From Phycisphaerales bacterium (GTDB lineage: Bacteria > Planctomycetota > Phycisphaerae > WQYP01), in contig DAHXKZ010000216.1 of assembly GCA_027366125.1 (NCBI GenBank), forward strand, positions 1 to 47,172: DNA of 47,172 nt, read 5' to 3'. The translations under genes and the position numbers were made by a program. Of this stretch, positions 9,849-37,629 are shown in pieces; the first letter of the stretch is position 1, and the number at the start of each line of letters is the position of its first letter. Under the pieces are notes generated by a model. The model saw only the letters and a program-made list of their open reading frames with translations. It did no database searches and had not been told where the DNA came from.

Positions 9849-10136
9849 CAGGCACCTGTTTGCAAGAGAAAACTGATCAATTTACCAAGGTAGGAATTGT
9901 AGAGGAAAGGTTGGCGGCAAGCAAAACCGAACAGAATAAAGGAATACGGGCGGTCATACTGTCTCCCTCTGCTTAAGAAGGCGTGAAAATAAGACGACCT
10001 ATGCGAACCGCGATGCAGAATTTTCATGAAAACTTGGTCTTTTGACCATACTCGGTGGCCAGAATTGCGCGGCGGCATTAGTCTTTCATTATTGACGGCA
10101 TCGGTTATTGCGTTTCCGCTGTTTCGGGAGGTTTTC

Positions 10137-12878
10137 ATGCGATCGATCAAGGGTTCTGCGAAAAATCGGGTCATTGGCGCCCGCGTGCGGCGGTCTTTGA
10201 CCGCGGGCGTTCTGGCGGCGTGCGCCGTTACCGCCGCCGCCGCCAACCGCGCCGCGGCGGGGCCGGGCCACCGGGTCCTCCACAAAACTGCCACGGACCG
10301 GATTATTAATCCGGTTGGCGCAGTGGCCCTGACGCCGAATTTTGCGATTGATGTTGTGAGCGCCGGCGGGCGGGTGGTGGTGGAAGCGGCGGGCGCCGGA
10401 TTGCGTCAAACGCTCACGGTGATCAATGCACGGAATCTTGCGGAAGAAACCCAACTGGGCTTTTTAAAAAATAAGCCCAAACGTTGGAACATTCTGGCGG
10501 GCATTTCAAAGCAGAGTCTTTTTCAGGGGCTGGCGGCGGGGCGACGCGGGATGGTCTACGCCGCCGGCGGCATCTCCGACGATGTGGTGGCGCTGCGTCT
10601 GGCGCGCGGCGGCGGGCTAAAATTAATTCGCAAATATGCCTTGGCGTTTCAGAATTTCCCCAAAACCCAGTATCCGTACCAATATCAGGGCCAGCGTGGC
10701 GCGGCGGATTTTTATCCTGATTCTGTCGCGGTAGGACAACGCGGCGCCCACCTGTTTGCCACGGGCCTGTTAAGCAACAGCGTGGCGCGCATTAATCTCC
10801 ATACGGGCCATACGGTCTATTGCAACGCCGGCGCCATGCCTTTTCAGGTGGTTGCCGCCGACCATGGCCGGCGGCTGGTGGTTAGCGATTGGGGCGGCGA
10901 TGGCGTAACGGTCATTAACGCGCGCACGATGAAGTGGCTGCATTCCATTAGAATTGGCCCGCGCACCGGACCAAGGAATACCCTGCCCGGCGTGCAACCC
11001 ACCGCATTGGCGGCGGTTGGCAATTCAGCGCAGGTGTGGGTGGCCTGCGCCAATGCTGATGTTCTTTCCGAGATCAATTGCAAAACCATGACAGTTCTCC
11101 GCACGGCCACGGACCGACCATACCGCAATGCCCCGCCGGGAACATTTCCCGACGCGCTGGCGGTGGCCGATGGAAAAGTGTTTGCGGCGAATGCCGGCAA
11201 CGACGATGTAGCAGTGTTTAATGCCCGCACCGGCGACGCCCAGGGATTAATTCCCACCGGTTGGTATCCAACAAATTTATGCGTGTATAAACAATCGCTG
11301 TATATTGCGTCCGCGAAAGGGTTGGGATCAGCGGCGAACCCGCAACGGCAGTGGATTGGCAATTCCATGGCCGGTTGCGTGCAGCGCGTGCCGCTGCATC
11401 AGTTGTCGCGCCATCTGGCTGCCTGGACGCGCATCGCATTGGCGGATAACGGCTTTTCAAAGGCCCAGCGCACCACACTGGCGCGCGAAAATGCGGCCGC
11501 CATTAAAGTTGTGCGTCGCCATATAAAATATGTTGTCTTTATTTTGCGCGAAAATAAAACCTTTGACGAGGAACTTGGGGCGTACAAACCGGCGGGCAGC
11601 TGGGCGGACCCCAAGCTGGATTTATACAACCGCACCGAACTGCCAAATCTTTACGCCCTGGCCGATCGATTCGGATTGTGCGTCAACTTTTACATGGATG
11701 GCGAAGTCACGGCGCAGGGGCATCAATGGACAACCTCCGCTGAGGATTCCGATTACGTGCAGCGCACCTGGCCCATGTATTATTCCAGCCGCGGGATAGC
11801 GCCAAACCCTGGGTGGTCGCAAAATTTGGCGGGGCAGGCCTTTCAAACCGGCACTGGCTTTAACGGAGTGGACGACCCCTTTTCTGATTACACCAACCTG
11901 CGGCGCCTGGGCGATTGGTCCAACCCGTGGATATCCTATCCCGGCGGCATGTTTATTTTTAATGATCTGCTGGCCCGTCACCGATCATTCATGGATTTTG
12001 GAGAATTTGTATCGCGCAATCAGGCCGGGCAGATCAGCCCCGCCATGGCCCAACATCTGGGAAAATCTTTTCCGGGCTGGAACCGCTTTATTCTGGATAC
12101 CCAGCGCGCGGACGTTGTGCATCAGTTTATTAAAGCCCACCGGAATAATCTTCCAAAATTCATGTACATGTGGTTGCCGGATGACCATACGGCGGGGCGC
12201 ACGCCGGGCTACTACACGCCGCAGTATTATGTGGCAAACAATGACCTGGCCACGGGGCGAATTGTTGCCGAACTTAGCCGCACGCCAGAATGGAAGCACA
12301 TGGCGATTTTCATCACTGAAGATGACGCGCAATCCGGGGCGGATCATATTGACGCCCACCGTTCTTTCGCCGTTGTCGCAAGCCCGTGGGTGAAGCCCGG
12401 AAAACTTATTACGCAGCGGTATTCCCAGGTGAATTTGCTGCGCACCATAGAGGCCATCACGAATGTGCCGCCCATGTCGCAGTGGGACGCCAATGCGCGG
12501 GTGCTTTCGGGCATATGGACCACCAAGCCCAATTTCGCGCCGTATGATGTGCAGCCGATTCGCGTGCCCATGAAGGTGAATCCGGGCAAACTTTGGCCGG
12601 GAGAGCAGTTGCGCCGCCGCGCCGGAAAAACCGGCCACTGGCTTTCTCCGCATTGGCTGAAAATGCACCGTGTGGCGGCGCGAGCGAAAAAGCCGCGATT
12701 CACGCCCACGCAACTCATGAAAGTCCCCGGCCCAGAGCAGATGCGCCAGGAATGGATCGCGGTGAAAGGAAAACGGTCATATTTGCAGGTGATGGCCTAT
12801 CTGCGGCGGCTGGGAAAATTGCAGCACCAACCATTAACCCATTACATCGCCAGCGATAATGGGGATGTGAGCCGGTAA
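10137..12878 (+). CDS. secreted beta-propeller (YncE/lactonase-like) fused to a phosphoesterase/alkaline-phosphatase-superfamily domain, paralog 1
   Basis: I chose the ATG at 10137 because GGGAGG lies 7 nt upstream and a signal-like MRSIKGS...AACAVTAAAANRAAA follows. C-terminal half motifs are YVVFILRENKTFDE, WLPDDHTAG and ITEDDAQSGADHIDAHRS. Confidence 0.82.
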   Translation: MRSIKGSAKNRVIGARVRRSLTAGVLAACAVTAAAANRAAAGPGHRVLHKTATDRIINPVGAVALTPNFAIDVVSAGGRVVVEAAGAGLRQTLTVINARNLAEETQLGFLKNKPKRWNILAGISKQSLFQGLAAGRRGMVYAAGGISDDVVALRLARGGGLKLIRKYALAFQNFPKTQYPYQYQGQRGAADFYPDSVAVGQRGAHLFATGLLSNSVARINLHTGHTVYCNAGAMPFQVVAADHGRRLVVSDWGGDGVTVINARTMKWLHSIRIGPRTGPRNTLPGVQPTALAAVGNSAQVWVACANADVLSEINCKTMTVLRTATDRPYRNAPPGTFPDALAVADGKVFAANAGNDDVAVFNARTGDAQGLIPTGWYPTNLCVYKQSLYIASAKGLGSAANPQRQWIGNSMAGCVQRVPLHQLSRHLAAWTRIALADNGFSKAQRTTLARENAAAIKVVRRHIKYVVFILRENKTFDEELGAYKPAGSWADPKLDLYNRTELPNLYALADRFGLCVNFYMDGEVTAQGHQWTTSAEDSDYVQRTWPMYYSSRGIAPNPGWSQNLAGQAFQTGTGFNGVDDPFSDYTNLRRLGDWSNPWISYPGGMFIFNDLLARHRSFMDFGEFVSRNQAGQISPAMAQHLGKSFPGWNRFILDTQRADVVHQFIKAHRNNLPKFMYMWLPDDHTAGRTPGYYTPQYYVANNDLATGRIVAELSRTPEWKHMAIFITEDDAQSGADHIDAHRSFAVVASPWVKPGKLITQRYSQVNLLRTIEAITNVPPMSQWDANARVLSGIWTTKPNFAPYDVQPIRVPMKVNPGKLWPGEQLRRRAGKTGHWLSPHWLKMHRVAARAKKPRFTPTQLMKVPGPEQMRQEWIAVKGKRSYLQVMAYLRRLGKLQHQPLTHYIASDNGDVSR

Positions 12879-13135: not shown

Positions 13136-15967
13136 ATGCGCATGCCAAAGAATCGTCGAACTGCCGGTTTTTCTTCGGACCGCCATCCGCACGTATCGAC
13201 AATTGCGTCGCGACGCGTCGCGACGCAGACGCTGCTGGCCGCCGTAGCGTGCGCGATTCTCGCGGCATCGGCGCCGTGCGCGTTTGCGACCGGCGTTCAT
13301 AAAACGTCCACCGGCCGTGTGATCAGTCCTGTCGGCACAGTGGCCATGACGCCCAATTTTGCCGTGGGGGTTGCGGGCGCTGAGGGACATGTGGTGGTGG
13401 AAGCGGCCGGAGCGGCCTTTCGTCACACGCTGACCGTAATGGACGCAAACGATCTTCGTGAGCAGGGCCAACTGGGTTTTTTGAAGAGCAAGCCGTGGCA
13501 TGGCAGCGTGGCGGCGGGGCTTTCGAAGCAAAGCCTTTTTCAGGGGCTGGCATCCGGGCCCAACGGCAAGATCTATGCCGCCGGCGGCGTTTCCAATAAT
13601 GTGCTGGCGCTACAAATAGGACCGACGGGCTCGCTGAAACTGGTGCGCCAATATTCCCTGACATTTCAGCCGTTCGCCAAAACGCAGTATCCATACCAAT
13701 ACCAAGGGGAGCGGCCGGCGGAAAAGAAGCAAACAGGCCCGGCTTCGCCAGGGCAAATTATCCCCCATGCCAGTGACGGCGCCAAGGGCGGACCGGATTT
13801 TTACCCTGATTCCGTTGCGCTTGGCGCCCGCGGGCTGCACCTGTATGCCACGGGTTTGTTATGCAACAGTTTGGCTCGCATCAATCTCAAGACCGGTCGC
13901 ACACGGTACGCCAACGCCGGCGCCATGCCTTTCCAGGTGATTACGGCCGACCACGGCCGGCGGCTGGTGGTCAGCGATTGGGCCGCCAACGGCGTGACGA
14001 TTTTTGACGCCCAAAACATGAAGCGTCTTGGTTTTATTAACATTGCCGCGCCGACGGGGCCAAAAAACCGCCTGCCGGGCGTGCATCCCACGGCGCTGGC
14101 GGCGGTGGGCGCATCGGCGCGCGTTTGGATTGCCTGTGCCAACACCGACACGCTGACGGAAGTTGATTCCAAAAGCTTGACGATATGCAAGGCCACCATC
14201 GACCAACCGTATCGCGGGGCTCCCCCCGGATCGTTTCCGGACGCGCTGGCGGTGGCGGACGGCAAAATATTTGCGGGCAACGCCGGCAATGACGATGTCG
14301 CGGTATTTGACGCGACCACGGGCCGGCCCGAAGGTTTAATTCCCACCGGCTGGTATCCCACCAGCTTATGCGCATATCGCGGGGCGATTTACGCGGTGTC
14401 AGCTAAGGGCCTGGGATCAACACCGGATAAAAAGCATCAGTGGATCGGCGCCTCCATGCCGGGATGCATGCAGCGAATTGCCCTGCGCCAGCTTGCGCAA
14501 AGGCTGCCGGCGTGGACGCACACCGCTCTGGAAAATGATGGCTTCACGCCGGCGCAACGAAGCAAGCTGGCCGGCGAAAACGCGGCCGCAACGCGATTTA
14601 TTCGCCAGCATATCCATTATGCGGTGTTTATACTACGGGAAAACAAGACGTTTGATGAAAATTTTGGGGCCTATAAACCAGCAGGGAGCTGGGCGGACAC
14701 CAGGCTGGATTTATACAACCGGACCGAACTGCCAAACCTGTACGCCCTGGCCGGTCGGTTCGGATTGTGCGTAAACTTCTACATGGATGGAGAAGTCACG
14801 GCACAGGGACATCAATGGACAACGGCCGCCGAAGACTCGGATTACGTGCAGCGCACCTGGCCCATGTATTATTCCAACCGCGGAATCGGGCCAAATCCAG
14901 GCTGGACCCAAACGCTGGACGACCGGACCTTCCACGCGAAAACCGGCTTTCGCGGCACCGACAATCCCTTTTCCGATTATTCCAATCTCAAACGGCTGGG
15001 GCACTGGTCCAATCCGTGGGTTTCCTATCCCGGTGGAATGTTTATTTTTAATGACCTGCTGGAAAATCACGTTTCCTTCATGGACTTTGGAGAATTTGTT
15101 TCACGCGATCAGGCCGGCCAGATCAGCCCGTCCATGGCGAAACACTTGGACCAACACTTTGCCGGCTGGAATCGCTTTGTCCTGGACACCGACCGGGCGA
15201 ACGTGGTACGGCGGTTTATCAAGGCTCACCCGCGCAATCTGCCGCATTTTATGTACATCTGGCTGCCGGATGACCACACCGCCGGCCGCACGCCGGGCTA
15301 TTACACGCCGCAATATTATGTCGCAAACAACGACCTGGCCACGGGGCGGATTGTGGCCGAACTCAGCCGCACGCCGCAGTGGAAGCACATGGCAATTTTT
15401 ATTACCGAAGACGATGCCCAATCCGGGGCGGATCATATTGACGCACACCGGTCATTTGCGGTGGTCGTGAGCCCTTGGATCAAGCCGGGAAAGCTGATCA
15501 AGCGCCGTTATTCCCAGGTGAGCCTGATGCGCACGATGGAAGCCATCACCAACGTGCCGCCGATGTCGCAATGGGATGCCAATGCCCGCGTGTTAAGCGG
15601 AATCTGGACGCGCCATCCCAACTTTGCGCCGTACAACGTGCAGCCCATCCGGGTGCCCGTGAAAGTGAATCCGGGCAAGCTTTGGCCTGGAGAAAAACTT
15701 CGACGCGAGGCTGGAAAGACCGGGCGCTGGCTGTCGCCGCAATGGCTGCAACGGCATGCCGGCGCGGTAAACGCCATTAAGAAATTAGACTTCACGCCCA
15801 CGCAACTCATGAAAGTGCCCGGCCCGGAACAGATGCGCCAAGAGTGGATGGCAGTAAAGGGAAAGGCGGCATACTTGCGCCTGATGGCCTATCTGCGGCG
15901 GCTGGCAAAATCGCAGCACCAGCCATTAACCCATTACATCGCCAGTGATAATGGGGATGGTGGTTAA
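13136..15967 (+). CDS. secreted beta-propeller/phosphoesterase fusion, paralog 2
   Basis: GGAGG at 13125-13129 precedes the ATG. The protein is collinear with 10137..12878 over its full length and carries the same motifs (YAVFILRENKTFDE, ITEDDAQSGADHIDAHRS). The C-terminal tail is nearly identical (QHQPLTHYIASDNGD). Confidence 0.82.
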   Translation: MRMPKNRRTAGFSSDRHPHVSTIASRRVATQTLLAAVACAILAASAPCAFATGVHKTSTGRVISPVGTVAMTPNFAVGVAGAEGHVVVEAAGAAFRHTLTVMDANDLREQGQLGFLKSKPWHGSVAAGLSKQSLFQGLASGPNGKIYAAGGVSNNVLALQIGPTGSLKLVRQYSLTFQPFAKTQYPYQYQGERPAEKKQTGPASPGQIIPHASDGAKGGPDFYPDSVALGARGLHLYATGLLCNSLARINLKTGRTRYANAGAMPFQVITADHGRRLVVSDWAANGVTIFDAQNMKRLGFINIAAPTGPKNRLPGVHPTALAAVGASARVWIACANTDTLTEVDSKSLTICKATIDQPYRGAPPGSFPDALAVADGKIFAGNAGNDDVAVFDATTGRPEGLIPTGWYPTSLCAYRGAIYAVSAKGLGSTPDKKHQWIGASMPGCMQRIALRQLAQRLPAWTHTALENDGFTPAQRSKLAGENAAATRFIRQHIHYAVFILRENKTFDENFGAYKPAGSWADTRLDLYNRTELPNLYALAGRFGLCVNFYMDGEVTAQGHQWTTAAEDSDYVQRTWPMYYSNRGIGPNPGWTQTLDDRTFHAKTGFRGTDNPFSDYSNLKRLGHWSNPWVSYPGGMFIFNDLLENHVSFMDFGEFVSRDQAGQISPSMAKHLDQHFAGWNRFVLDTDRANVVRRFIKAHPRNLPHFMYIWLPDDHTAGRTPGYYTPQYYVANNDLATGRIVAELSRTPQWKHMAIFITEDDAQSGADHIDAHRSFAVVVSPWIKPGKLIKRRYSQVSLMRTMEAITNVPPMSQWDANARVLSGIWTRHPNFAPYNVQPIRVPVKVNPGKLWPGEKLRREAGKTGRWLSPQWLQRHAGAVNAIKKLDFTPTQLMKVPGPEQMRQEWMAVKGKAAYLRLMAYLRRLAKSQHQPLTHYIASDNGDGG

Positions 15968-23822: not shown

Positions 23823-24128
23823 ATGAAGAACTCGCAGAAGATTTCCACCGCCGCCTCGTTGTTCGCCGCCGCCGCACTCACGGGCATGCTCGCCGGCGCC
23901 GCGAACGCGTCCGGCACAGGGCCGGTGCGGGAAGGTGGCTTTGGCGCCAGCCGCGCCATCGCAGGCACATTGGTCTCGGGCAGCGGACTGTTTAAGGCCG
24001 CGCACCTGTGCAAAGGCAAGAACTCCTGCAAGGGCAAAGGTGGTTGCAAAACGGCGACCCACAGTTGCGTGGGCAAGAATTCCTGTCAGGGCAAAGGCGG
24101 CTGCAACACCACGATGCCCAAAGCCTGA
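23823..24128 (+). CDS. Sec-signal-peptide, 6-Cys RiPP precursor candidate (bufferin-like Cys-rich peptide)
   Basis: AAGGAA at 23813-23818 precedes the ATG. The signal peptide is MKNSQKISTAASLFAAAALTGMLAGAANA. The core holds two repeats, CKGKNSCKGKGGCKT and CVGKNSCQGKGGCNT. The gene lies immediately upstream of DUF692 and DUF2063 genes. Confidence 0.75.
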   Translation: MKNSQKISTAASLFAAAALTGMLAGAANASGTGPVREGGFGASRAIAGTLVSGSGLFKAAHLCKGKNSCKGKGGCKTATHSCVGKNSCQGKGGCNTTMPKA

Positions 24129-24170
24129 ACGCCCGTCGGAAGAATGGGCAAAATGTAAATGGCGATCAAT

Positions 24171-24201
24171 GGGGCGGGATTCCATGTTCCCGCCCCTTTT
24201 T
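24171..24201 (+). terminator. intrinsic terminator/attenuator between the precursor and maturase genes
   Basis: A 9-bp GC-rich stem, GGGGCGGGA (24171-24179) pairing with TCCCGCCCC (24188-24196), has an 8-nt loop and is followed by TTTTT (24197-24201). It ends 15 nt before the DUF692 ATG. Confidence 0.7.
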
Positions 24202-24215
24202 CCGTTGGAGTTGCC

Positions 24216-25088
24216 ATGCCAGCCAACCGCCACAATGGCTTTACCAATCTTGGCATTGGCATAGGATTGCGCGTTCCGCATTACGAGCATATTCTTAATA
24301 ATAAACCTGCGGTGGATTGGTTCGAGATTATCTCCGAGAACTACCTGGTCGACGGCGGCCGCCCCCTTGAAGTACTCGACGACATTCTGGCCCAGTACCG
24401 CGTCGTGCAGCATGGCGTGGCGGCCTACTTTGGTTCGGCCGACCCGCTGAACCGCGAACATTTGCGGCGACTTAAGGCGTTGGTAAAGCGCACGAAGACG
24501 CCATTTCTGTCGGATCATCTCTGCTGGGGCAGCGTTGATGGCACGTATTCGCATGACCTGCTGCCCATGCCATATACGTTCGCCGCCGCGCGGGTGGCGG
24601 CGCGGCATATCCGCGAGGCTCGCGATTTTTTAGAAACGCCGATCATTGTGGAAAACGTCAGCAGTTATGCGGAATTTCATGCGTCAGAAATGACCGAGTG
24701 GGAATTTTTATCCGAAGTGGTCCACCTCGCTGATTGCGGCATTTTGCTTGATGTCAATAACATCTATGTGTCTTCACGCAATCATGGCTTTGACGCCTAT
24801 GACTACATCAACGGCATTGATCCCGAAAGAGTGGGCCAGATACACATTGCCGGGCACAGCAAATTTAAGAAGTACATTCTTGATACGCATGATCATCCGG
24901 TGCTGGACCCGGTGTGGAAATTGTACGCGCATGCCGTGGCCCTGGCGGGTGAAACCTCAACGCTGCTGGAATGGGACGCCCGTATTCCCTCGTTTGAGGA
25001 AGTACACCATGAAGCGCTGAAGGCAAATCGGTTTGCCAGCGCTCTGTGCCGGGCGGCGTCGGGAGGGCGTCATGCGGCGCAACGCTGA
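24216..25088 (+). CDS. DUF692 / MNIO (multinuclear non-heme iron oxidative) family RiPP-modifying enzyme
   Basis: GGAG at 24207-24210 precedes the ATG. Motifs are GIGIGLRVPHYEHIL, DWFEIISENY, QHGVAAYFGS, FLSDHLCW, DLLPMPYT, ENVSSY and LDVNNIYV. Confidence 0.85.
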   Translation: MPANRHNGFTNLGIGIGLRVPHYEHILNNKPAVDWFEIISENYLVDGGRPLEVLDDILAQYRVVQHGVAAYFGSADPLNREHLRRLKALVKRTKTPFLSDHLCWGSVDGTYSHDLLPMPYTFAAARVAARHIREARDFLETPIIVENVSSYAEFHASEMTEWEFLSEVVHLADCGILLDVNNIYVSSRNHGFDAYDYINGIDPERVGQIHIAGHSKFKKYILDTHDHPVLDPVWKLYAHAVALAGETSTLLEWDARIPSFEEVHHEALKANRFASALCRAASGGRHAAQR

Positions 25089-26055
25089 AGCGTCCACATC
25101 CGATGAATTTATGCCAAAAAAATCCGCCGGAAAGCCGCCGGCCCGGGTTCCTGTGGCGCCCGGCGCGCCGCCAAAGACGGTACATTCCAGCGAAGAACTT
25201 CGCCAATTGCAGCGCGCCATGCTGGACGCCGTGCGGACGCCGCTAACGTCCGACATGCGCATGAGCAGGCGCGGACCCGCCGGCGGCTCCGCCGCTGCGC
25301 TGGCCGGAAAATTTATCAAACCAAACGACCGCATGAACAGCTTCGAACGCTTGGAAATTTACAACCGCCAATACTGGTTTCGCCTGTTTGACTGCCTGTA
25401 CGATGATTTTCCCGGCTTACGCGCGGTGTTGGGGGAGACGCGGTTCATGGCCATGGCCGAGGCTTATATAACAGAATATCCTTCGCGCACCTTCAGCTTG
25501 CGCGATCTGGGCGGGCGGTTGCCGCGGTTTCTTCAGGAACATCCGGAATGGGCGGGCAAAAGGCAGGCCGTGGCGCTGGATGTGGCGCGGTTGGAATGGG
25601 CGCAGATCACCGCCTTTGACAGCGCCGCCCGGCCGCCGCTGACTGTTGACGATTTGCTGGGCGCCGACGCGGCCCGACTGAAACTGCGTTTGCAGCCATA
25701 CATTTCACTGCTGGCCCTGGCCTATCCTGTGGATGATTTTGTAAACACATTGCAGCCGCGGCAAACGTTGCAAACGGAAGCCGCCGAGGAACCGCGGCGC
25801 CGCACGTCGCGCGGGCCGGCGCGGCTGCCCAAGCCGCGGCCAGAGTTTTTGGCGGTGCATCGTTTTGAAAACCAGGTCTACTTTAAGTCGCTGGAGCAGC
25901 CCGCGTTTGAGCTGCTAAGAAATTTGGACGCCGGACTGACCATTGATGCGTCATGCCGGAAAGTTATCAGCGTGCAGGCGCAGCGGTTGGATTGGGGTTC
26001 CGTGCTGCAGGCATGGTTTGCCAACTGGACGCAACTGGGCTGGTTTTGCCGATAA
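25072..26055 (+). CDS. DUF2063-family partner protein of the MNIO enzyme
   Basis: The ATG at 25072 follows GGGAGGG and overlaps the DUF692 stop, suggesting translational coupling. LEIYNRQYWFRLFDCLYDDFPGLRAVLGETRFMAMAEAYITEYPS matches the DUF2063 N-terminal signature. Confidence 0.72.
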   Translation: MRRNAEASTSDEFMPKKSAGKPPARVPVAPGAPPKTVHSSEELRQLQRAMLDAVRTPLTSDMRMSRRGPAGGSAAALAGKFIKPNDRMNSFERLEIYNRQYWFRLFDCLYDDFPGLRAVLGETRFMAMAEAYITEYPSRTFSLRDLGGRLPRFLQEHPEWAGKRQAVALDVARLEWAQITAFDSAARPPLTVDDLLGADAARLKLRLQPYISLLALAYPVDDFVNTLQPRQTLQTEAAEEPRRRTSRGPARLPKPRPEFLAVHRFENQVYFKSLEQPAFELLRNLDAGLTIDASCRKVISVQAQRLDWGSVLQAWFANWTQLGWFCR

Positions 26056-26085
26056 CCTTCGGAATATTGTCATGTGGGGCGGTTT

Positions 26086-26119
26086 CCGGGAACCGGTCAC
26101 GGCCAAGGCTCCCGGTTTT
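26086..26119 (+). terminator. possible intrinsic terminator after the DUF2063 gene
   Basis: The stem CCGGGAACC / GGCTCCCGG has one mismatch and a 12-nt loop, and is followed by TTTT. Confidence 0.4.
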
Positions 26120-26191
26120 CGGACATGGCAGTTCTTTTGCATCGCGTGTAATCTACCGCGGACTGTGTGGTCACGAAGCATCGAGCCCGGC

Positions 26192-27025
26192 ATGAACATT
26201 GGTCAAACGCCAGCGCCAATTGAACCGGCGCCCCGCACCGCGCGCAGGCGCCAGTTGCTGCTGCGCTGGGTCGCAGTGTTGCTGGCGTTTGTGCTGTTGC
26301 TGGTGCTGGCCCATTTTATTCCCGTGACCGCGGCCACGGACGCTTTTTCGCGCCGGGTGCGCGCCTTTGGTTTTCTGGGGCCGCCACTATTCGGCGCCGC
26401 CTACATCGTGGCCACCATTATATTCATCCCGGCGGCGCCGTTAACCCTGGCGGCGGGCGCCGTGTTTGGCATATGGACTGGCATGGCCATTGTTTCTGCC
26501 GGTTCCACCGTGGCGGCCGCAGCGTCTTTTCTTATTGCGCGGTATCTCGCCCATGGATTTGTGGAACGGCGGGCGGCGAAGAGCCCACGGTTTCGCGCCA
26601 TTGAGCAGGCGATTGCCCAACGCGGCTGGAAGATGATCGCATTGCTGCGCCTGTCGCCGGTGGTTCCGTTCACGCTGACAAATTATTTATTAGGTCTGAC
26701 CGAAATTCAATTCTGGCCCTATGTGCTGGTAACCTGGATCGCCATGCTGCCAGCGACATTTTTGTATATCTATCTTGGTTATGTCGGCAGGGCGGCGGCC
26801 AGCGGCCATCACCGGTCGCCATTCCAATGGACGATGCTCACGGCCAGTCTGGTCGCCACCGTGGCGTTGACCGTTTACATTTCGATCGTGGCCCGGAACG
26901 CGGTGCGGGCGGCGGAAAACGCGCCGGTTCCACCTACGATTTTGGATGCCAACCAGGCGGCTTTCCCGGGCCCCGGCGACAAGGGCAACGGCCAGTCTGC
27001 GCAGGCCTCCGGCGGCGCGGACTAA
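26192..27025 (+). CDS. TVP38/TMEM64 (DedA-related, SNARE-associated) family membrane protein
   Basis: I chose the start at 26192 (MNIGQTPAP...). There are multiple TM helices. Family-typical motifs include PAAPLTLAAGAVFG and LLRLSPVVPFTLTNYLLGLT. Confidence 0.72.
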   Translation: MNIGQTPAPIEPAPRTARRRQLLLRWVAVLLAFVLLLVLAHFIPVTAATDAFSRRVRAFGFLGPPLFGAAYIVATIIFIPAAPLTLAAGAVFGIWTGMAIVSAGSTVAAAASFLIARYLAHGFVERRAAKSPRFRAIEQAIAQRGWKMIALLRLSPVVPFTLTNYLLGLTEIQFWPYVLVTWIAMLPATFLYIYLGYVGRAAASGHHRSPFQWTMLTASLVATVALTVYISIVARNAVRAAENAPVPPTILDANQAAFPGPGDKGNGQSAQASGGAD

Positions 27026-27026
27026 A

Positions 27027-27050
27027 GTGCGAGGGTGCGAGGGTGCGAGG
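27027..27050. repeat. three direct copies of GTGCGAGG
   Basis: GTGCGAGGGTGCGAGGGTGCGAGG reads directly after the TVP38-family stop codon. Confidence 0.85.
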
Positions 27051-27093: not shown

Positions 27094-27609
27094 ATGAAGA
27101 TCGGAAAAATTGCACATGCCAATGCGGCGCCCATCCCTGATGACAAGGCCCTGGCCATTGCCGCGTATGGCGAATCGGTGGCGGCGTATCGGTATATTAT
27201 TCTTGCCGAGAAGACGCGCCTTCCCATGCTGCATGAGGCATTTGAAGGCATGGCGGCTGAAGAGCGTGGGCACCGTGACCGGCTGCAGGCCATTCTGTCG
27301 CGGCTGGCAACCAACGCTGCGTTTTATTTAACCAACGAAGACAAGAGCGCCGTATGCGTGGGGCCGCGGCTGCTTGATGCGCGGGATGATGCGCATTTTG
27401 ATGAGGCGATGCGGCTGGTGATTGCCAGCGAGAAACGCACCAGCAGCTTTTACCATCGGGCGGCGGCGCGGGCCGCGGATGAGCAGGTCAAGGCCCTGTT
27501 TGAAGAACTTGCCTTGGAGGGACTGGAACACGTTCAGAAACTGCGTGGGCTGTTCAAGGAAATCGGCAAGGACAATCTTGAACCGTGCCCCATGCAGAAC
27601 TTGCGATAG
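27094..27609 (+). CDS. ferritin-like / rubrerythrin-type four-helix-bundle protein (putative)
   Basis: 171-aa product starting MKIGKIAHANA. Helical segments include AAYGESVAAYRYIILAEKT, AAEERGHRDRL, ASEKRTSSFYHRAA and LALEGLEHVQKL, with Glu/His metal-ligand-like positions. No Shine-Dalgarno sequence is present. TACACT lies 6 nt upstream of the ATG. Confidence 0.55.
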   Translation: MKIGKIAHANAAPIPDDKALAIAAYGESVAAYRYIILAEKTRLPMLHEAFEGMAAEERGHRDRLQAILSRLATNAAFYLTNEDKSAVCVGPRLLDARDDAHFDEAMRLVIASEKRTSSFYHRAAARAADEQVKALFEELALEGLEHVQKLRGLFKEIGKDNLEPCPMQNLR

Positions 27610-31088: not shown

Positions 31089-32165
31089 TTATGGGCACAT
31101 GGGCGAACTGGCGATTACTTCATTTCCAAATGGCCTCTCCACGCTGACATTGGCCGCGCTTCCGTGCGAGACCGTTTTGAATCCCACCGGCAAAAACTGT
31201 TCAATCACGGCAATGTTGGTCGTGGCGTGCAGCGACAGCGGCAGCGTGCGGAATGTTCCGCCGGCCAGGGCCAATGGTATTAACAATTGGTCGGCAAGAT
31301 GGACTCCCACGGGGGCGTCGCTTTTCAAATACCGTCGCACATCTTGACTGACATGCTCCGCCACGCCTTCCGCGGTGACATTTTTGGCGCCAAAGCCGGT
31401 GATCACTTCCGTTACATTGGCATAGGCCAGTTGCGTCTGCAGTACATTTCCCGGACCGTGGGCCTCGGGCAATTCTTCCACATGAAATGCGTCTTGCGGC
31501 CAGGAAAGCCGTGACGCCAGCGTATGCAGTTCGCGTTGGGCGATGCTAACGGGCAATCCGGCGATAAATGCCGTGGCCTGGTAGCCGCGCAACTCTCCGC
31601 GCGTCAGAAGATTCAGCGGTTGCCAGACTTTCACGGGCTGTATGTCCACGGAAACATGGCCGCCGCCGGCCGGATAAAAGCCGCAGCGATGCAGCTTTGC
31701 CGTAACCGATGCGCCCATTCCCGCGAGCACCGGCAGGAATGCGTCCTGGATAAAATGATAGGTTGGCGCCATGGGGTTGTGCGTGCCGCCTTCCAGTTGC
31801 AGCGAGCTGGCGCCGTCGCCGGTCAGCAGCGCCGGCAGCACCGTTTGCAGCACCAACAGGGCGGACCCCGCGCTGCCAACTGAAAATTCATAATTTCCGG
31901 CCTTTATTGGCCCGGGCCGAAAGGCCAATTCGCCTGAACCTAAGTTCGCGCCGGAACTCGCGGCGCCACAGACTTCTGTGGCGGCTCGCACGGCGGTTAA
32001 ATGCTGGCGCAGCAGGCCCGGTTTGCGGCGGCCGGCGCGGATTTGCGTCATGTGAAATCCGCGACCGGTCAGCATGGAAAGGGCCAGGGCGGTGCGCAGA
32101 ATCTGGCCGCCGCCCTCGCCGGCCGTGCCATCCAGTAATACCAATGGGTCCGTGGGTGCAGGCAT
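31089..32165 (-). CDS. rtcA: RNA 3'-terminal phosphate cyclase
   Basis: 358-aa ORF. The N-terminus LDGTAGEGGGQILRTALALSMLTG, followed by RKPGLLRQHLTAV, is typical of RtcA. The start abuts the rtcB stop (TAAATG). Confidence 0.9.
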   Translation of the reverse strand: MPAPTDPLVLLDGTAGEGGGQILRTALALSMLTGRGFHMTQIRAGRRKPGLLRQHLTAVRAATEVCGAASSGANLGSGELAFRPGPIKAGNYEFSVGSAGSALLVLQTVLPALLTGDGASSLQLEGGTHNPMAPTYHFIQDAFLPVLAGMGASVTAKLHRCGFYPAGGGHVSVDIQPVKVWQPLNLLTRGELRGYQATAFIAGLPVSIAQRELHTLASRLSWPQDAFHVEELPEAHGPGNVLQTQLAYANVTEVITGFGAKNVTAEGVAEHVSQDVRRYLKSDAPVGVHLADQLLIPLALAGGTFRTLPLSLHATTNIAVIEQFLPVGFKTVSHGSAANVSVERPFGNEVIASSPMCP

Positions 32166-33698
32166 TTAGTCATCCGCCTTGTCTGAATCTTTAATGACAA
32201 ACCGCGCGCGCAGCCGCGCCACTTCCGTGGCCAGGTCGGCCGCCTCCACGCTGTGCAGCACCGCGTCGAAGTTTTTGTATGCGGCGGGGGCCTCATCCAT
32301 GGGATAACGCCGGCAGTTTGTTAAAATGTCCGCGGCGGCGAAACTTTCATCAATGGCCTGTTGGTTAAATTCCCGAATGGCGGCCTTGCGGCCCTTCACC
32401 CGGCCGGCGCCGTGGTTCACGCTAAACGCGCTCTTTTGGGCCCCTGGCTGCGCCACCATTACGCTGCTGCCCGCCTGCGGATTTCCTGGCAACAAAATAG
32501 GATGGCCGGTTTCATAAAACGGCGTGTCTTTCAGCGCATGATGCCGCGCGGGAAACGCCCGCGTTGCCCCTTTGCGATGTACCCACGCCAGACTGCTTCC
32601 GCCAGAGCCATGGCCTGAACTGCGCGTTGTGGTTTCCAACCGGGCGATGTTGTGGCTGATAAAATAAACCAGCTTTCCGATGGCGCCGGGAATTACTTCC
32701 TGAAACGCCTCCAGCACCAGCGCGTTAATAAGCATGTGGTTCACTGTAGCAAAGTTGGCGCCCAGAGCCATGTCGTCTAAGTAAGCATCCGCCTCCGTCG
32801 TTCCCAGTGGGGCGTACACCAGATGTTTATCATTGGCCGGCAACGGAATGCTCCATTCTAAAAAGTGCTTTTGCAACTGCCGAAACTGATGATCCGCAAG
32901 TTGATAACCAAACCCGCGCGAGCCGCAATGGGACAAAAACGCAATCCGGCCATCCAGCAGGCCGAAGGCGTCGGCCACCGCTTCCTGTCCCTTGCGCACC
33001 TGCACCACTTCACATTCGCCAAAGTGGTTGCCGCCGCCGTAAGAACCCAGTTGCGAGATTTTCTCCGCAAAATTCTTCAGCACGCCGGCGTCAATGAGTT
33101 TCTGCACGCGCGTTTGCAGGGTATCGGCGGCGCCGTCGTGGCCCACATGGTGGGAATCTTCGCAACGCTGCGCCCATTCCGGCGGAATGCCAATACTTTC
33201 ACAAACGCCCGTCGAGGCGCCTTCAACGGCCACGCGCCGGCCGAGTTCCGGCCCAACATGGCGCGACTTTTTCACGCTGCGCTGGCCGTGGCCGGCGCCG
33301 GTGGGCACGCGCTGCAAAATGGCGTTAATAATGGCCCGGCGCGTGCCGGCATCCTCCATTTCACTGGCCGGAATGTCCAACTGCAGCAGGCTCATGGAAC
33401 ATTTAATATCAACGCCTACCGGTCCAGGGTAAATGTGCGTGGGCGATACCAGCACACAGCCAATGGGGGCGCCGTAACCGCAGTGGGCATCGGGATTCAG
33501 CACCACTTCGGTAACGCCCGGCGCATCGCGTGAATTGAGCGCCTGTTGAACGCACAGGTCGTCAAACGTGGCGCGCACCTCCGGCGTGCCGATGACAGTA
33601 ATTGGGCTGAGGTTGGAATGCCGGGCCGGCAATATGGCCGTCGCCTCGCCGGTGCTGATAAATCCATATTTGTTTTCAGGGGCTGATTCAGAGTTCAT
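32166..33698 (-). CDS. rtcB: RNA-splicing ligase RtcB
   Basis: I chose the start at 33698 (MNSESAPENKYGF; AAGGAAGA upstream). Motifs are NPDAHCGYGAPIG, GGGNHFGE, HCGSRGFG and HRKGATRA. The 107-codon upstream extension in the ORF track runs through the ncRNA array and is rejected. Confidence 0.9.
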   Translation of the reverse strand: MNSESAPENKYGFISTGEATAILPARHSNLSPITVIGTPEVRATFDDLCVQQALNSRDAPGVTEVVLNPDAHCGYGAPIGCVLVSPTHIYPGPVGVDIKCSMSLLQLDIPASEMEDAGTRRAIINAILQRVPTGAGHGQRSVKKSRHVGPELGRRVAVEGASTGVCESIGIPPEWAQRCEDSHHVGHDGAADTLQTRVQKLIDAGVLKNFAEKISQLGSYGGGNHFGECEVVQVRKGQEAVADAFGLLDGRIAFLSHCGSRGFGYQLADHQFRQLQKHFLEWSIPLPANDKHLVYAPLGTTEADAYLDDMALGANFATVNHMLINALVLEAFQEVIPGAIGKLVYFISHNIARLETTTRSSGHGSGGSSLAWVHRKGATRAFPARHHALKDTPFYETGHPILLPGNPQAGSSVMVAQPGAQKSAFSVNHGAGRVKGRKAAIREFNQQAIDESFAAADILTNCRRYPMDEAPAAYKNFDAVLHSVEAADLATEVARLRARFVIKDSDKADD

Positions 33699-33757
33699 GT
33701 TGGTCTTCCTTATTAATGGCCGGCCATACGACCGGCATTCTGATGTTGTGCAATACC

Positions 33758-33892
33758 GGCAGCGACAAAAAATTGACGAAACAGGCAACGTGCTCTGCCA
33801 CTGAGCTACCGGTACGGCGGTTATGCCGCGCCCGGGCGGGAGTCGAACCCGCGACCTCGTTCTTACATGTAGTTCCGTCGGCATTCGCTGCC
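33758..33892 (-). ncRNA. Y-RNA-like ncRNA with a tRNA-like module (unit 3, proximal to rtcB)
   Basis: On the minus strand the 5' end GGCAGCGAATGCCGACGGAACTACATG pairs with the 3' end TTGTCGCTGCC. The T-arm is GCGGGTTCGACTCCCGC (33836-33852). A closed acceptor-like hairpin follows, then the D-arm GGTAGCTCAGTGGCAGAGCA (33791-33810). Confidence 0.65.
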
Positions 33893-33933
33893 GGTGGATT
33901 CTCCTGGCGTTATGCCATTTTCCGTGACCGCCA

Positions 33934-34044
33934 CGCCGGCGACAAATGGTGCGGAAACATTCGGAACCGCCGGCCTTGCGGCGTTGGCGGTCCCGGCGGG
34001 AGTCGAACTCGCGACGCATGTAGTTCCAGCGGCATTCGCCGGCG
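33934..34044 (-). ncRNA. Y-RNA-like ncRNA, shorter variant (unit 2)
   Basis: It has the same 5' motif (CGCCGGCGAATGCCGCTGGAACTACATG) pairing with the 3' end TTGTCGCCGGCG. A T-arm-like GCGAGTTCGACTCCCGC lies at 33996-34012. There is no D-arm. Confidence 0.5.
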
Positions 34045-34063
34045 TGTCGGCTTGGCTTAACAA

Positions 34064-34208
34064 GGGCGGCGACAAAAATTGGCGAAACATAGTACGGGCT
34101 CTATCCAGTTGAGCTACCGTCCGGCATGTTGCCATGCGAGACAGGCGGGAATCGAACCCGCAACCTCGTCCTCGGTAAGGATGTAGTTCCGCCGGCATTC
34201 GCCGCCCC
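34064..34208 (-). ncRNA. Y-RNA-like ncRNA with a tRNA-like module (unit 1, proximal to rsr)
   Basis: The 5' end GGGCGGCGAATGCCGGCGGAACTACATCC pairs with the 3' end TTGTCGCCGCCC. The T-arm is GCGGGTTCGATTCCCGC (34145-34161). The D-arm is GTAGCTCAACTGGATAGAGC (34098-34117). Confidence 0.65.
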
Positions 34209-34222
34209 GGATTCTTTACCAG

Positions 34223-35779
34223 TCAAATCCGCTGCTGTTCAATGATGCCAACCCAGTGATCGACTGACAACGCGCCCTTTTGAAACTGCGCCAGGACATC
34301 AAACACCGCGTCGCTAAAGCCGCCGATGTTCATAATATCCGGGCGCTCGGGCGCCTGCGTGGTGGCGTTGGGAACCAGGTCGATACACGCCATTCGCGCG
34401 TTCGGGCAGCGGGCCGCAACCGCGTTCCATTGCCGCAGCGTTTCCGTGCCCGGCAACAATGGATTGGTATCAATCCAGGACTGGTTGTCCGAGATAAATA
34501 TGACTAGGTCAACGTGCGCCTGGTGCGCGTTGAGCCACTGCAAGCCGGCTGAACAGTTCGTCCCGCCGCCGCCCACCGCCGCCAGCTTCTGCGCGTTGGT
34601 GAAAACGCTGTCGCGCGGATTAATGGCAAGTGGTACCACGTCAACATCAAAGGGCATGACGACGGCCTGCCGATTCTTGCGAACAATTGCCGCGGCTACC
34701 AGCGCTGCCACGTCCACACAGCGCACCGCCGATGTTGCCCCGCGCACGGTTCCGGTAATCGCCGACCGCATGGAACCGGAAACATCCGGGAACACGGCCA
34801 CATCGCCGGCAATTTCCGGTACATTGTCCACGGCAATTTCCACGGCGTCCTGCAACGCTTCGCACAGTTGCGCGGGTATTGCACGGTCCGCATGCGTGTA
34901 TGCCGCCAAAAGCTGATACGGCAGCGCCCGGGCCTTACGAATTAATTCCGCGTTACGCAACCGGTCAGCGATCACCGGTACAAGCGAAGCATCATTGAAC
35001 ACAGCGTGCCGGGCGAATGTGTTCAGGTTCATCCGCGTCATCTGCCACGGCGCATTGCGGGCAATTTCCGACCACTGGGCCGTGTTAAGCGGCAGGGCGG
35101 TGAGCATCTGAAACGGCACATCCGGCGGCGCCTGCGCCGCGCCGGCCTTAAACTCCTCAAACTGCCGCACCAGCAAAGGCAGCGCCTGTGCGTCATACGG
35201 TTGCCCAATAAGATACCCGAATAACGCCTGCCGGCTGGCGGTCCGCGGCTTCGGGTGGACCATCTTAATAATATCGGCCAGCGATGGATCGGCGCCAACA
35301 CAGCCGCGGAAAAGCTGCTCATCACTGTGGCGTTCCAAATAGTTGCGCACCATGCGCCGCGGCAGCGTGCCCAACGACTTGCGCCCAACCGCGCCGGAGC
35401 GCATGATCTGCACAAAGTTGCGCAGCATCCTGGGCGTGTCAATTACGCGGTCAAAAATTTCCGCCATTAGGCCCGGCGACCGCACCGAAAGCAACGCGCA
35501 CAACAACGCCGGGGCATCCTTCATGTGTCCGCTGGTTCGACCATACAAGGCTGCCTTGGCAATAAATTCCGGTTCAACCTGCGCGGCCACCTTCAGCGCC
35601 ATATCCAGTTGCTGGTGTTCCGTGGCGTAAAACGTGCGGGTCAGGCAGCCGGTGGCCGCAAACTGTGCCACGGCATGCCGGGGGCCAAAGCCGTAGGCTG
35701 GGGCGCGTTCGCTGTTGATGGCGTCCGTCGGCGGTACGTAGGCCCCACGCACAGAATGGAATAATGTTCGGCTGGCCAT
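34223..35779 (-). CDS. rsr: Ro60-related (TROVE domain plus vWA-like) protein Rsr
   Basis: I chose the start at 35779 (MASRTLFHSVRG; AAGGTG upstream). The TROVE-like N-terminal two-thirds include NSERAPAYGFGPRHAVAQF and FYATEHQQL. The C-terminus is vWA-like with a MIDAS motif (VFPDVSGSM). Confidence 0.82.
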   Translation of the reverse strand: MASRTLFHSVRGAYVPPTDAINSERAPAYGFGPRHAVAQFAATGCLTRTFYATEHQQLDMALKVAAQVEPEFIAKAALYGRTSGHMKDAPALLCALLSVRSPGLMAEIFDRVIDTPRMLRNFVQIMRSGAVGRKSLGTLPRRMVRNYLERHSDEQLFRGCVGADPSLADIIKMVHPKPRTASRQALFGYLIGQPYDAQALPLLVRQFEEFKAGAAQAPPDVPFQMLTALPLNTAQWSEIARNAPWQMTRMNLNTFARHAVFNDASLVPVIADRLRNAELIRKARALPYQLLAAYTHADRAIPAQLCEALQDAVEIAVDNVPEIAGDVAVFPDVSGSMRSAITGTVRGATSAVRCVDVAALVAAAIVRKNRQAVVMPFDVDVVPLAINPRDSVFTNAQKLAAVGGGGTNCSAGLQWLNAHQAHVDLVIFISDNQSWIDTNPLLPGTETLRQWNAVAARCPNARMACIDLVPNATTQAPERPDIMNIGGFSDAVFDVLAQFQKGALSVDHWVGIIEQQRI

Positions 35780-35885
35780 GATGCGACACCTTATTAAGTA
35801 GGCATTCCGGGCCGCGTTTGGCTTACCGAAAAGCCGCTTCGCGTGCGGGACATATAACAACGCTCGTACCAGGCTTGGCCCCGAC

Positions 35886-35900
35886 GCTTCAGATGTGCCC
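35886..35900 (-). promoter_or_regulatory. candidate sigma-54 (-24/-12) promoter for the rsr operon
   Basis: The minus strand reads GGGCACATCTGAAGC, against the consensus TGGCACG-N4-TTGC. The GG and GC dinucleotides have the correct 12-nt register, but the -12 flank is AAGC rather than TTGC. It lies about 107 nt upstream of the rsr ATG. Confidence 0.3.
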
Positions 35901-36009
35901 TAACCTATTGCTTATAAATGACTTGCGCACGGCACAGCGCATTGTGGCGAAAAACCCAGCCAACCGTTATCCTATCCCTTTGGATAAAATTACGAGAAGG
36001 CAGGATAGC

Positions 36010-37629
36010 ATGGCAACAACAAAGAAAGACCAATCCCACAAGCCGCTGGTGGTCATTGGCCTGCTTGGAACCACGCTTGACGGCGGCGGCGGCGTGCAAC
36101 GCTGGGAACGCTGGCGGCCAACGGTAGACCTGTGCCGCCATGATGATCTGGTCATTGACCGCTTGGAACTGCTGCACCAGGAAAAGTTTAACAAGCTCGG
36201 CGACACTGTAACCGCGGACATTGCCCGGTGTTCGCCGGAAACGCAGGTCCGCCGGCACATGGTGGAATTTGCCAACCCATGGGATTTTCAGGAAGTGTAC
36301 GGCACGCTGCTGGATTTCGCCCGCGCGTATCGTTTCGATCCGGATAAAGAGGATTATCTGGTGCATATAACCACCGGCACCCATGTGAGCCAGATCTGCC
36401 TTTTCCTGTTAACCGAGGCCCGCTGGCTGCCCGCACGGCTGCTGCAAACCGCGCCGCCCGGCGGCCATCGCCCATCCACGCCCGGCACGCACGCCATCAT
36501 TGACCTGGACCTTTCACAATACGACCGCATCGCATCGCGCTTTATGCAGCAGACCACGGAATCGGTTTCGTTCTTAAAGTCCGGCATTGATACAAAAAGC
36601 GCGGCGTTTAACGCGCTTATTGGGCGAATTGAACGCGTGGCCGGCGCTTCCAAGGCCCCGATTTTGCTCATTGGCCCCACCGGCGCCGGCAAGAGCCAAC
36701 TGGCCCGGAGAATTTATGAATTAAAAAAAACGCGGCGACAGGTGCTGGGCGCGTTTGTGGAGGTCAACTGCGCCACCTTGCGCGGCGATGCCGCCATGTC
36801 CACGCTTTTTGGCCATGTGAAGGGGGCGTTCACCGGCGCGGTGTCCGCCCGGCCGGGGCTGTTGCGCGCCGCGGACAAAGGAATGCTGTTTTTGGATGAA
36901 ATTGGTGAACTGGGGGCCGATGAACAGGCCATGCTGCTGCGCGCCGTGGAAGAGAAACGCTTTCTGCCCGTCGGGGCCGATGGCGAAGCGGCCTCGGACT
37001 TTCAACTGCTGGCGGGGACAAATTGCGATTTACAACGCGCCGTGATCGACGGCCGCTTCCGCGAAGATTTATTCGCGCGCATCAACTTGTGGACATTCAA
37101 TCTGCCGGGCCTGAAAGACCGCCGGGAGGATTTGGAACCCAACATTGAATATGAACTGGCGCAATTTGCCCGCAACCACGGCACAAAAGTGACATTTAAT
37201 AAGGAAGCCCGGGCGAAATTTCTGGCGTTTGCCCAGTCGCCCGAAGCTCTGTGGCGGCGCAACTTCCGCGACTTAAACGCCAGCATTTCCCGCATGGCAA
37301 CATTGGCCGTGGCCGCCGGCGGGGCACGCATCGGCTTGGAAGATGTGAATGCGGAAATCGCGGCATTGGCGGCGTCCTGGCAGGATATTTCCGGGGCCCC
37401 GCAGGGCGAGCTGCCGGAGGCCGTTGCGGCTAAGGCCGGTGAACTTGACGTGTTTGACCGGGTACAACTGGCGGAAGTGGTGCGCGTGTGCCAGGCTGCG
37501 TCAACAATTTCCGATGCGGGCCGAACGCTGTTTGCGGCCAGCCGGAAAACGAAAAAAGCCCCCAATGACGCCGATCGTCTGCGCAAATATCTGGCCCGCT
37601 TCAGCCTGACATTTGATGACCTGCGGTGA
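36010..37629 (+). CDS. rtcR: sigma-54-dependent transcriptional activator RtcR (CARF-like N-terminal domain plus AAA+ domain)
   Basis: I chose the start at 36010 ([21 protein letters not shown]). The AAA+ core carries [15 protein letters not shown], the GAFTGA loop ([10 protein letters not shown]) and LFLDEIGEL. The gene is divergent from rsr, as in known rtc loci. Confidence 0.88.

Follow-up and report, generated by a model that had tools for sequence, protein, structure and literature searches.

A probable Buf2-type bufferin operon (bufABC) on a contig of a Phycisphaerae-like planctomycete

The described system that most resembles the one reported here is Buf2 of Caulobacter vibrioides (buf2ABC, CCNA_02999-03001), in which a precursor with a Sec signal peptide and a six-Cys core carrying Cys-Lys motifs is encoded ahead of a multinuclear non-haem iron oxidase (MNIO) and a DUF2063 partner protein (that is, in the order bufA-bufB-bufC), with no DoxX gene in the operon. 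Its product shows mass shifts of -18 and -16 Da, in which the outer cysteines (CysI and CysVI) carry no modification and are probably joined by a disulfide and the four central cysteines are each shifted by -4.03 Da, and the operon is induced by copper and improves growth under copper stress (PMC11626156). The modification of bufferins has been confirmed as 5-thiooxazole (10.64898/2025.12.15.693703), and the same chemistry, to which oxazolin was re-assigned, has been confirmed for the wider class in a study whose nomenclature calls the Buf2 or BUF_6/12Cys bufferins "Cys-Lys captophorins" (PMC13097082). Here we analyse a candidate member of this family in DNA of a Phycisphaerales bacterium (contig DAHXKZ010000216.1, 47,172 nucleotides); we refer to this whole 47-kb stretch as the window, and gene coordinates follow its numbering.

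Other described systems share part of this architecture. Buf1 (DUF2282, buf1ABCD) has a BufB and a BufC from the same large MNIO cluster, an exported precursor, thiooxazole and disulfide chemistry and a role in copper protection; unlike the window's cluster, it has a four-Cys precursor with DUF2282 and an operon that usually includes DoxX and sigma/anti-sigma genes. The EGKCG "Lys-Cys" captophorins (oxazolin HvfABC, fontiphorin, gonophorin and bulbicupramide) are alike in their close MNIO and PME-1 partner and in their signal-peptide precursors with 5-thiooxazole copper-binding products, but are built on an E-G-K-C-G repeat in which Lys stands before Cys. Methanobactin (MbnABC) likewise depends on an MNIO with identical iron ligands, which oxidises precursor cysteines to a heterocycle and a sulfur ligand for copper; however, the partner is MbnC rather than a DUF2063 protein, the precursor carries a leader peptide instead of a Sec signal, and the oxazolone-thioamide product is secreted to acquire copper instead of being kept for detoxification.

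In the window, the following features make up a cluster that we assign, with a probability of about 0.82, to the Buf2 (BUF_6/12Cys) family as a bufABC operon:

23823-24128, forward strand: bufA, an open reading frame (ORF) of 101 residues identified with its translation, the probable Buf2-type bufferin precursor
24171-24206, forward strand: GC-rich stem-loop followed by UUUUU in the bufA-bufB spacer, from a terminator scan and folding
24216-25088, forward strand: bufB, 290 residues, an MNIO (DUF692) and the probable bufferin maturase
25072-26055, forward strand: bufC, 327 residues, a DUF2063 and RRE-like partner of PME type 1

A first-pass annotation had placed here, across 23823-26119, a bufferin-type system of peptides made on ribosomes and modified after translation, with an MNIO, a DUF2063 protein and an exported Cys-rich precursor, in a PVC-like (Planctomycetes-Verrucomicrobia-Chlamydiae) genome. 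This reading is borne out by profile matches, ligand conservation, the fold of the partner and the neighbourhoods of homologues, and is now sharpened to the Buf2/BufA2 subfamily; the start of the span holds, and its end moves to that of bufC at 26055. For comparison, 80 genome loci were fetched via relatives of BufC (Verrucomicrobiota, Acidobacteriota and Planctomycetota; 40-53% identical to the window BufC), and the order bufA-bufB-bufC is kept in nearly all of them. The analysis demonstrates the family membership of the three proteins, their intact catalytic residues, the gene order and its conservation. The cluster belongs to a bufferin family already described in 2024-2026 and represented by curated NCBIfam models; it is not a new kind of system, and its differences in hairpin, precursor clade, BufB residue 255 and BufC length are variation inside that family.

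The precursor has the predicted layout of an exported peptide. A basic n-region (K2 and K6) and a hydrophobic stretch (residues 7-24, with a Kyte-Doolittle mean above 1.5 over residues 7-17) precede the cleavage motif A-N-A↓S (residues 27-30), and residues 1-29 (23823-23909) are predicted to form a Sec signal peptide. A Gly/Ser/Ala-rich linker (residues 30-60) leads to the six-Cys core (residues 61-95; 24003-24107), with cysteines at 63, 69, 75, 82, 88 and 94. The core is built of two 19-residue repeats, HLCKGKNSCKGKGGCKTAT (24003-24059) and HSCVGKNSCQGKGGCNTTM (24060-24116), which are identical at 13 of 19 residues and 41 of 57 nucleotides. Thus the 101-residue ORF is organized as first described, with a Sec-type signal peptide, two repeats of about 19 residues and six cysteines. 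The core motif reads H-x-C-K-G-x-N-x-C-K-G-x-G-G-C-x6-C-x-G-K-N-S-C-x-G-K-G-G-C, and its spacing (H-x-C-x5-C-x5-C-x6-C-x5-C-x5-C) is conserved among BufA homologues and in the related loci.

Profile searches of the kind proposed in the first-pass annotation gave no Pfam match of BufA to DUF2282 (E ≤ 0.01); the protein has six cysteines, against the four of Buf1, and no EGKCG motif. The NCBIfam model NF050166 (BufA2) was matched with E 2.8e-9 and 37.1 bits, under the cut-off of 60, a shortfall explained by an alignment that is confined to the 37-residue core (residues 59-95 to profile positions 29-65 of 79); the linker of about 31 residues between signal peptide and core, which distinguishes this precursor from that of Caulobacter Buf2, accounts for the restricted alignment. 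All 26 of the aligned BufA homologues match the same model, the best of them with E 2.4e-17. The annotation had also held that its reading would fail if the small ORF were not conserved or if the DUF692 protein lacked its iron ligands (see below). We found 435 BufA homologues at E ≤ 1e-3, and the 26 that were aligned share 17 invariant core positions, including H61, C63, C69, C75, C88 and C94, with C82 kept in more than 90%; this is not a chance ORF. The nearest homologues include two from metagenome-assembled genomes (MAGs) labelled Phycisphaerae.

These data also bear on the idea that the small ORF is not the true substrate, being either untranslated or an unmodified Cys-rich periplasmic metal binder while BufB and BufC act elsewhere. 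Precursor genes unlinked to MNIO genes have indeed been noted in a survey (PMC12452194). Here, however, the ORF immediately precedes bufB in a conserved order, a pairing seen in nearly all of the 80 loci; it has a good Shine-Dalgarno sequence (AAGGA, 5 nt upstream), a high GC content at third codon positions (0.79) and homologues with invariant core residues, and no other Cys-rich ORF and no second MNIO is present within the window. We consider this explanation exceedingly unlikely.

The second gene, bufB, starts at 24216, 87 nt past the bufA stop (the first-pass annotation had put it within 90 nt), with a GGAG Shine-Dalgarno sequence 7 nt upstream. An alternative start at ATG 24159 was rejected, given that the hairpin at 24171-24196 would then be coding, that orthologues and profiles begin near 24216 and that the Shine-Dalgarno sequence belongs to the latter. 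BufB matches Pfam PF05114 (MbnB_TglH_ChrH) over its full length (E 4.6e-103) and exceeds the cut-off of the NCBIfam model NF050167 (MNIO_BufB; 340.6 bits against 310), whereas it falls far under those of the HvfB (238.1 against 360), ApyH, ChrH and MbnB (37.5 against 325) models. This MNIO-subfamily comparison, likewise proposed at the outset, separates the enzyme from those of methanobactin and of the EGKCG captophorins; the position equivalent to Arg16 of the latter is not conserved either, being Val20 in the window BufB.

The iron site is intact. In TglH, the ligands are H71, H107, E151, D184, H216 and E258 for Fe1/Fe2 and D184, N187, D229 and H231 for Fe3 (PMC10880893). Pairwise alignment places BufB H101, E146, D179, N182, H210, D223, H225 and E252 opposite TglH H107, E151, D184, N187, H216, D229, H231 and E258, and BufB H66, the counterpart of TglH H71, aligns to the H-G motif of the diiron structure 3BWW, which is the best PDB sequence match of BufB. 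D254 corresponds to FonB-D249, the proposed catalytic base. All nine iron-site ligands and D254 are present and invariant in 81 BufB orthologues that were taken from the related loci and aligned, which is the opposite of the loss of ligands that the first-pass annotation had named as damaging to its reading. As a separate observation, BufB is 72-81% identical across Planctomycetota, Verrucomicrobiota and Acidobacteriota (loci L001-L091), with 117 of 290 positions invariant in the 81 sequences; against this unusually high cross-phylum conservation, BufC of the same loci is only 40-53% identical.

The subfamily assignment bears on the product as well, given that the mass of a thiooxazole is shared by an isobaric alternative, in which cysteines would be converted to oxazolone-thioamide pairs as in methanobactin. 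Such a structure was the original assignment for oxazolin, the product of a closely related MNIO (PMC11252979), but oxazolin has since been re-assigned to 5-thiooxazole, and selective labelling has confirmed this structure for the bufferins (10.64898/2025.12.15.693703; PMC13097082; 10.64898/2026.07.17.739211). Together with the distance of BufB from the MbnB model, this makes the oxazolone-thioamide product very unlikely.

The third gene, bufC, begins with the ATG at 25072, inside bufB, and the two genes share 17 nt. The first-pass annotation had seen this ATG as overlapping the DUF692 stop; this is slightly imprecise, as the genes do overlap but the ATG lies 14 nt ahead of that stop codon (25086-25088) and not on it. 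BufC matches Pfam PF09836 (DUF2063) with 68.6 bits (cut-off 27.2). A PDB sequence search with BufC returned no relative, and its identity is therefore based on the Pfam match and on a fold search with an AlphaFold2 model, which has a predicted local distance difference test (pLDDT) score of 82.3. The best PDB fold matches of this model are TglI (8HI7_A, E 3.5e-6), the partner of TglH, and NGO1945 (3DEE, E 1.5e-5), the reference PME type 1 partner, and the C-terminal part of the model bears a weak likeness to RRE domains such as that of TbiB1. On the basis of the model, BufC would be a TglI/NGO1945-like partner with a DUF2063 and an RRE-like part. At 327 residues, it is longer than the typical 250-260; the added length lies in two disordered segments, an N-terminal extension (about 30 residues) and an internal loop (about 15-25 residues), which set it apart from the Caulobacter protein.

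The first-pass annotation regarded the chemistry, metal and role of this system as not known from the sequence. We suggest that membership in the family permits a prediction, in which the identity of the modified cysteines, the thiooxazole chemistry, the export and the copper role are all carried over from relatives. BufA would be made in the cytoplasm carrying its Sec signal peptide, and BufC would form a complex with BufB and present the precursor to it. BufB would then use O2 in a four-electron oxidation of each target Cys to 5-thiooxazole. By analogy with Caulobacter Buf2, for which four thiooxazoles and one disulfide are likewise the family-level prediction, the targets would be the central C69, C75, C82 and C88, while the outer C63 and C94 would stay unmodified and form a disulfide; the expected mass shift is -16 Da, which the disulfide would bring to -18 Da. 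Once exported by Sec and cleaved after Ala29, the product would be a 72-residue periplasmic peptide that may chelate excess copper.

Several observations weigh against assigning the locus to Buf2 with this outcome. As described above, BufA scores under the BufA2 equivalog cut-off with only its core aligned. Val and Gln stand after two of its central cysteines, where Lys is usual. At residue 255, BufB carries Ala where 65 of the 81 orthologues have Asp; for an Asp at this site (FonB-Phe250/BufB2-Asp251), a contact with the Lys that follows the target Cys has been proposed (PMC13097082). The AlphaFold2 model of BufA (from the 26-sequence alignment) is uninformative, with a pLDDT of 47.7 and no secondary structure, and is thus unusable for fold comparison or disulfide geometry. 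Finally, the copper link is without support from gene context: the window's large ORFs include no copper-homeostasis or copper-resistance genes and no extracytoplasmic function (ECF) sigma/anti-sigma pairs.

In the clade of this BufA, T-A-T-H-S stands in place of the common inter-repeat S-G-D-N-G and creates a second H-x-C, with an additional His (His80) two positions ahead of CysIV; the residue after CysIV is Val or Ala in the clade, and the one after CysV is Gln in this genome. At BufB position 255, Ala occurs in 13 and Ser in 3 of the 81 orthologues, and these variants are found largely in loci labelled Phycisphaerae, Phycisphaerales or Tepidisphaeraceae. Given the non-Lys residues after CysIV and CysV and the Ala255 of BufB, the number of modified cysteines could differ from that of Caulobacter Buf2. 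A planctomycete sub-clade defined by Ala/Ser255, CysIV-Val, CysV-Gln and His80 might accordingly modify another subset of cysteines or bind a metal other than copper. Consistent with this notion, Ala/Ser255 often coincides with a non-Lys residue after CysIV, site 255 is reported to tune selectivity for the residues that flank Cys (PMC13097082), and some bufferins serve metals other than copper, as MerC-Buf2 fusions show (PMC12452194). However, no change is seen in the Cys spacing, in the GKN and GGC motifs or in the invariant His61, the FonB variants F250A and F250D still installed thiooxazoles (PMC13097082), and residue 255 correlates loosely with the residue that follows CysIV, in a pattern that for the most part tracks phylogeny. 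Asp at site 255 is a sequence-logo tendency of the Cys-Lys MNIOs, not their definition. We therefore regard an altered outcome as unlikely and favour the Buf2 assignment with its family-level chemistry.

The spacer between bufA and bufB contains a stem-loop at 24171-24196 (9 bp, 8 of them G-C), followed by UUUUU, and the spacer as a whole folds with -36.8 kcal/mol (z = -3.16). It resembles an intrinsic terminator or attenuator, which would yield more precursor than enzyme transcript, and in the Buf2 operon proposed here it probably raises bufA mRNA over that of the enzyme. A similar hairpin with a U-run, of -19 kcal/mol or stronger and of non-homologous sequence, is present in about 24 of 62 related bufA-bufB spacers. 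This recurrence suggests a conserved attenuator or stabiliser that sets an excess of precursor. No mention of a hairpin after bufA was found in the literature searched.

With regard to other regulatory signals, a sigma-70 promoter scan gave no site upstream of bufA, a scan that is uninformative for a planctomycete or ECF-dependent promoter. Unlike the Caulobacter operon, the cluster has no SigF/NrsF-type regulator near it, and its host is planctomycete-like and not an alphaproteobacterium. In a published survey, sigma/anti-sigma genes accompany Buf1 clusters and not Buf2 clusters. In one of the nearest related loci (L003, 1091-5654; Phycisphaerae MAG GCA_049965595.1), an ECF sigma-70 gene and an 88-residue ORF, which could encode an anti-sigma factor, precede bufABC, and a gene for a radical-SAM-like protein with a CNLACHHC motif follows it in the place where DoxX otherwise stands. 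In another Phycisphaerae MAG (GCA_035504095.1; L001, 6001-9887, and L002), two tandem BufA2-type precursors precede bufB and two DoxX genes follow bufC.

Around the cluster, a gene for an M19 dipeptidase (Pfam E 3.3e-57) is divergent from bufABC, and two genes follow on the same strand:

26072-27025, forward strand: VTT-domain (TVP38/DedA-type) membrane protein, Pfam PF09335, E 2.4e-30
27094-27609, forward strand: ferritin-like (rubrerythrin-domain) protein, 171 residues, no signal peptide, Pfam PF02915, E 1.6e-13

The first-pass annotation had named these three neighbours, correctly, and had stressed that DoxX is missing and that the neighbours differ from those of bufferin operons. Both statements are true of the window (tblastn at E up to 10 found no DoxX anywhere in it), but their unusualness was overstated. 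Among the 80 related loci, DoxX is present in the flank of 63, mostly directly after bufC; 13 of the 76 informative loci have none despite at least 1 kb of downstream sequence, and 4 loci are cut too short to tell. The absence of DoxX, a common gene of these clusters that does not define them, is no anomaly, given that the founding buf2ABC operon of Caulobacter also has none; in buf1, BufB and BufC are needed for modification, and DoxX is dispensable both for modification and for function (PMC11626156). Nor are the neighbours conserved: no homologues of the window's VTT, ferritin-like or M19 proteins were found in the 80 loci, even at E ≤ 0.05.

The five tightly spaced forward-strand genes (bufA, bufB, bufC, VTT and ferritin-like) could nonetheless be read as a single operon, in which bufABC is co-transcribed with, and works with, the last two genes as a new bufferin operon variant; VTT might stand in for DoxX, and the role of the ferritin-like protein might be to provide or buffer iron for BufB or to connect the peptide with iron or oxidative stress. 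The arrangement on one strand is compatible with this, as are the short gaps (16 nt from bufC to VTT, or 136 nt if ATG 26192 is used, and 17-68 nt between VTT and the ferritin-like gene), the convergent RecQ gene that comes next and the position of VTT, which is the one that DoxX occupies in most relatives. However, beyond the lack of either gene near bufABC in relatives, three ferritin-like homologues (63-66% identity) stand in unrelated contexts with no buf or VTT genes, the related loci without DoxX have heterogeneous downstream genes, and the VTT and ferritin-like starts have no clear Shine-Dalgarno sequence, unlike those of bufA, bufB and bufC. A survey of about 14,000 MNIO clusters moreover found further conserved genes only at extremely low proportions (PMC12452194). 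A functional five-gene operon is thus improbable, and VTT plus ferritin-like as a conserved module, with or without buf, was rejected on the neighbourhood evidence. Given the lack of conservation with bufABC and the survey result, the tight spacing is best read as local gene packing; the two genes are probably mere neighbours outside the system, and their co-transcription with bufABC is possible. A broader version, in which a functionally shifted planctomycete sub-clade (Ala/Ser255, the second H-x-C and Val/Gln) has VTT and the ferritin-like protein as lineage-specific accessories in the place of DoxX and could have another modification pattern or metal target, seems to us similarly doubtful, and we retain bufABC as the extent of the Buf2 system.

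A word-indexed protein search placed the ferritin-like protein in a small family (152 members), which come from Phycisphaerae or Planctomycetes wherever the source is named, and a metagenome scan with it gave a single relative (28% identity). In all three of the homologue contexts mentioned above (loci L093, L094 and L096), the gene for the 172-residue ferritin-like protein lies within a few kb of an FHA-GAF-HATPase sensor gene, and no such sensor gene was seen in the window. Just after the VTT stop (TAA 27023-27025) and before the ferritin-like gene, three perfect tandem copies of the octamer GTGCGAGG occupy 27027-27050 and include GTG 27043, which one gene caller used as the ferritin-like start.

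With regard to the host, the evidence of the window is consistent with the earlier label of PVC-like and, more precisely, with Planctomycetota. For the precursor, BufC and the ferritin-like protein, the closest relatives with a name come from Phycisphaerae or Tepidisphaeraceae, and the window also encodes a protein with an N-terminal methylation motif and a PEP-CTERM protein. The same contig was found in an ENA metagenome assembly and in the GenBank MAG GCA_027426395.1. Elsewhere in the window, a complete RNA-repair locus (31089-37629) is present:

35818-37629, forward strand: RtcR, sigma-54 activator, divergent from the Ro60/TROVE-vWA gene
34223-35860, reverse strand: Ro60/TROVE-vWA protein of the RNA-repair locus
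34063-34205, reverse strand: YrlA, Y-RNA-like small RNA (Rfam RF02553, 74.3 bits against a gathering score of 69)
32166-34019, reverse strand: RtcB of the RNA-repair locus
31089-32165, reverse strand: RtcA of the RNA-repair locus

Two adjacent genes (10026-12878 and 13136-15967) encode proteins of about 945 residues with a C-terminal Phosphoesterase domain (PF04185) and have the look of tandem paralogues. On the reverse strand at 44038-46470, a single ORF of 810 residues joins a domain for extracellular solute binding (SBP_bac_1) to one of an ABC permease (BPD_transp_1), beside a second permease and a MalK-like ATPase.

In summary, the window adds one more Buf2-type cluster, in a Phycisphaerae-like planctomycete, to a family that is already thousands strong across many phyla, and the finding mainly confirms the wide spread of copper-buffering peptides in soil and peat bacteria. 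The recurrent hairpin after bufA suggests a conserved means of setting the ratio of precursor to enzyme, and the natural Ala/Ser255 variants of BufB provide a ready test of the published selectivity model, in which this residue is proposed to read the Lys that follows the target Cys.

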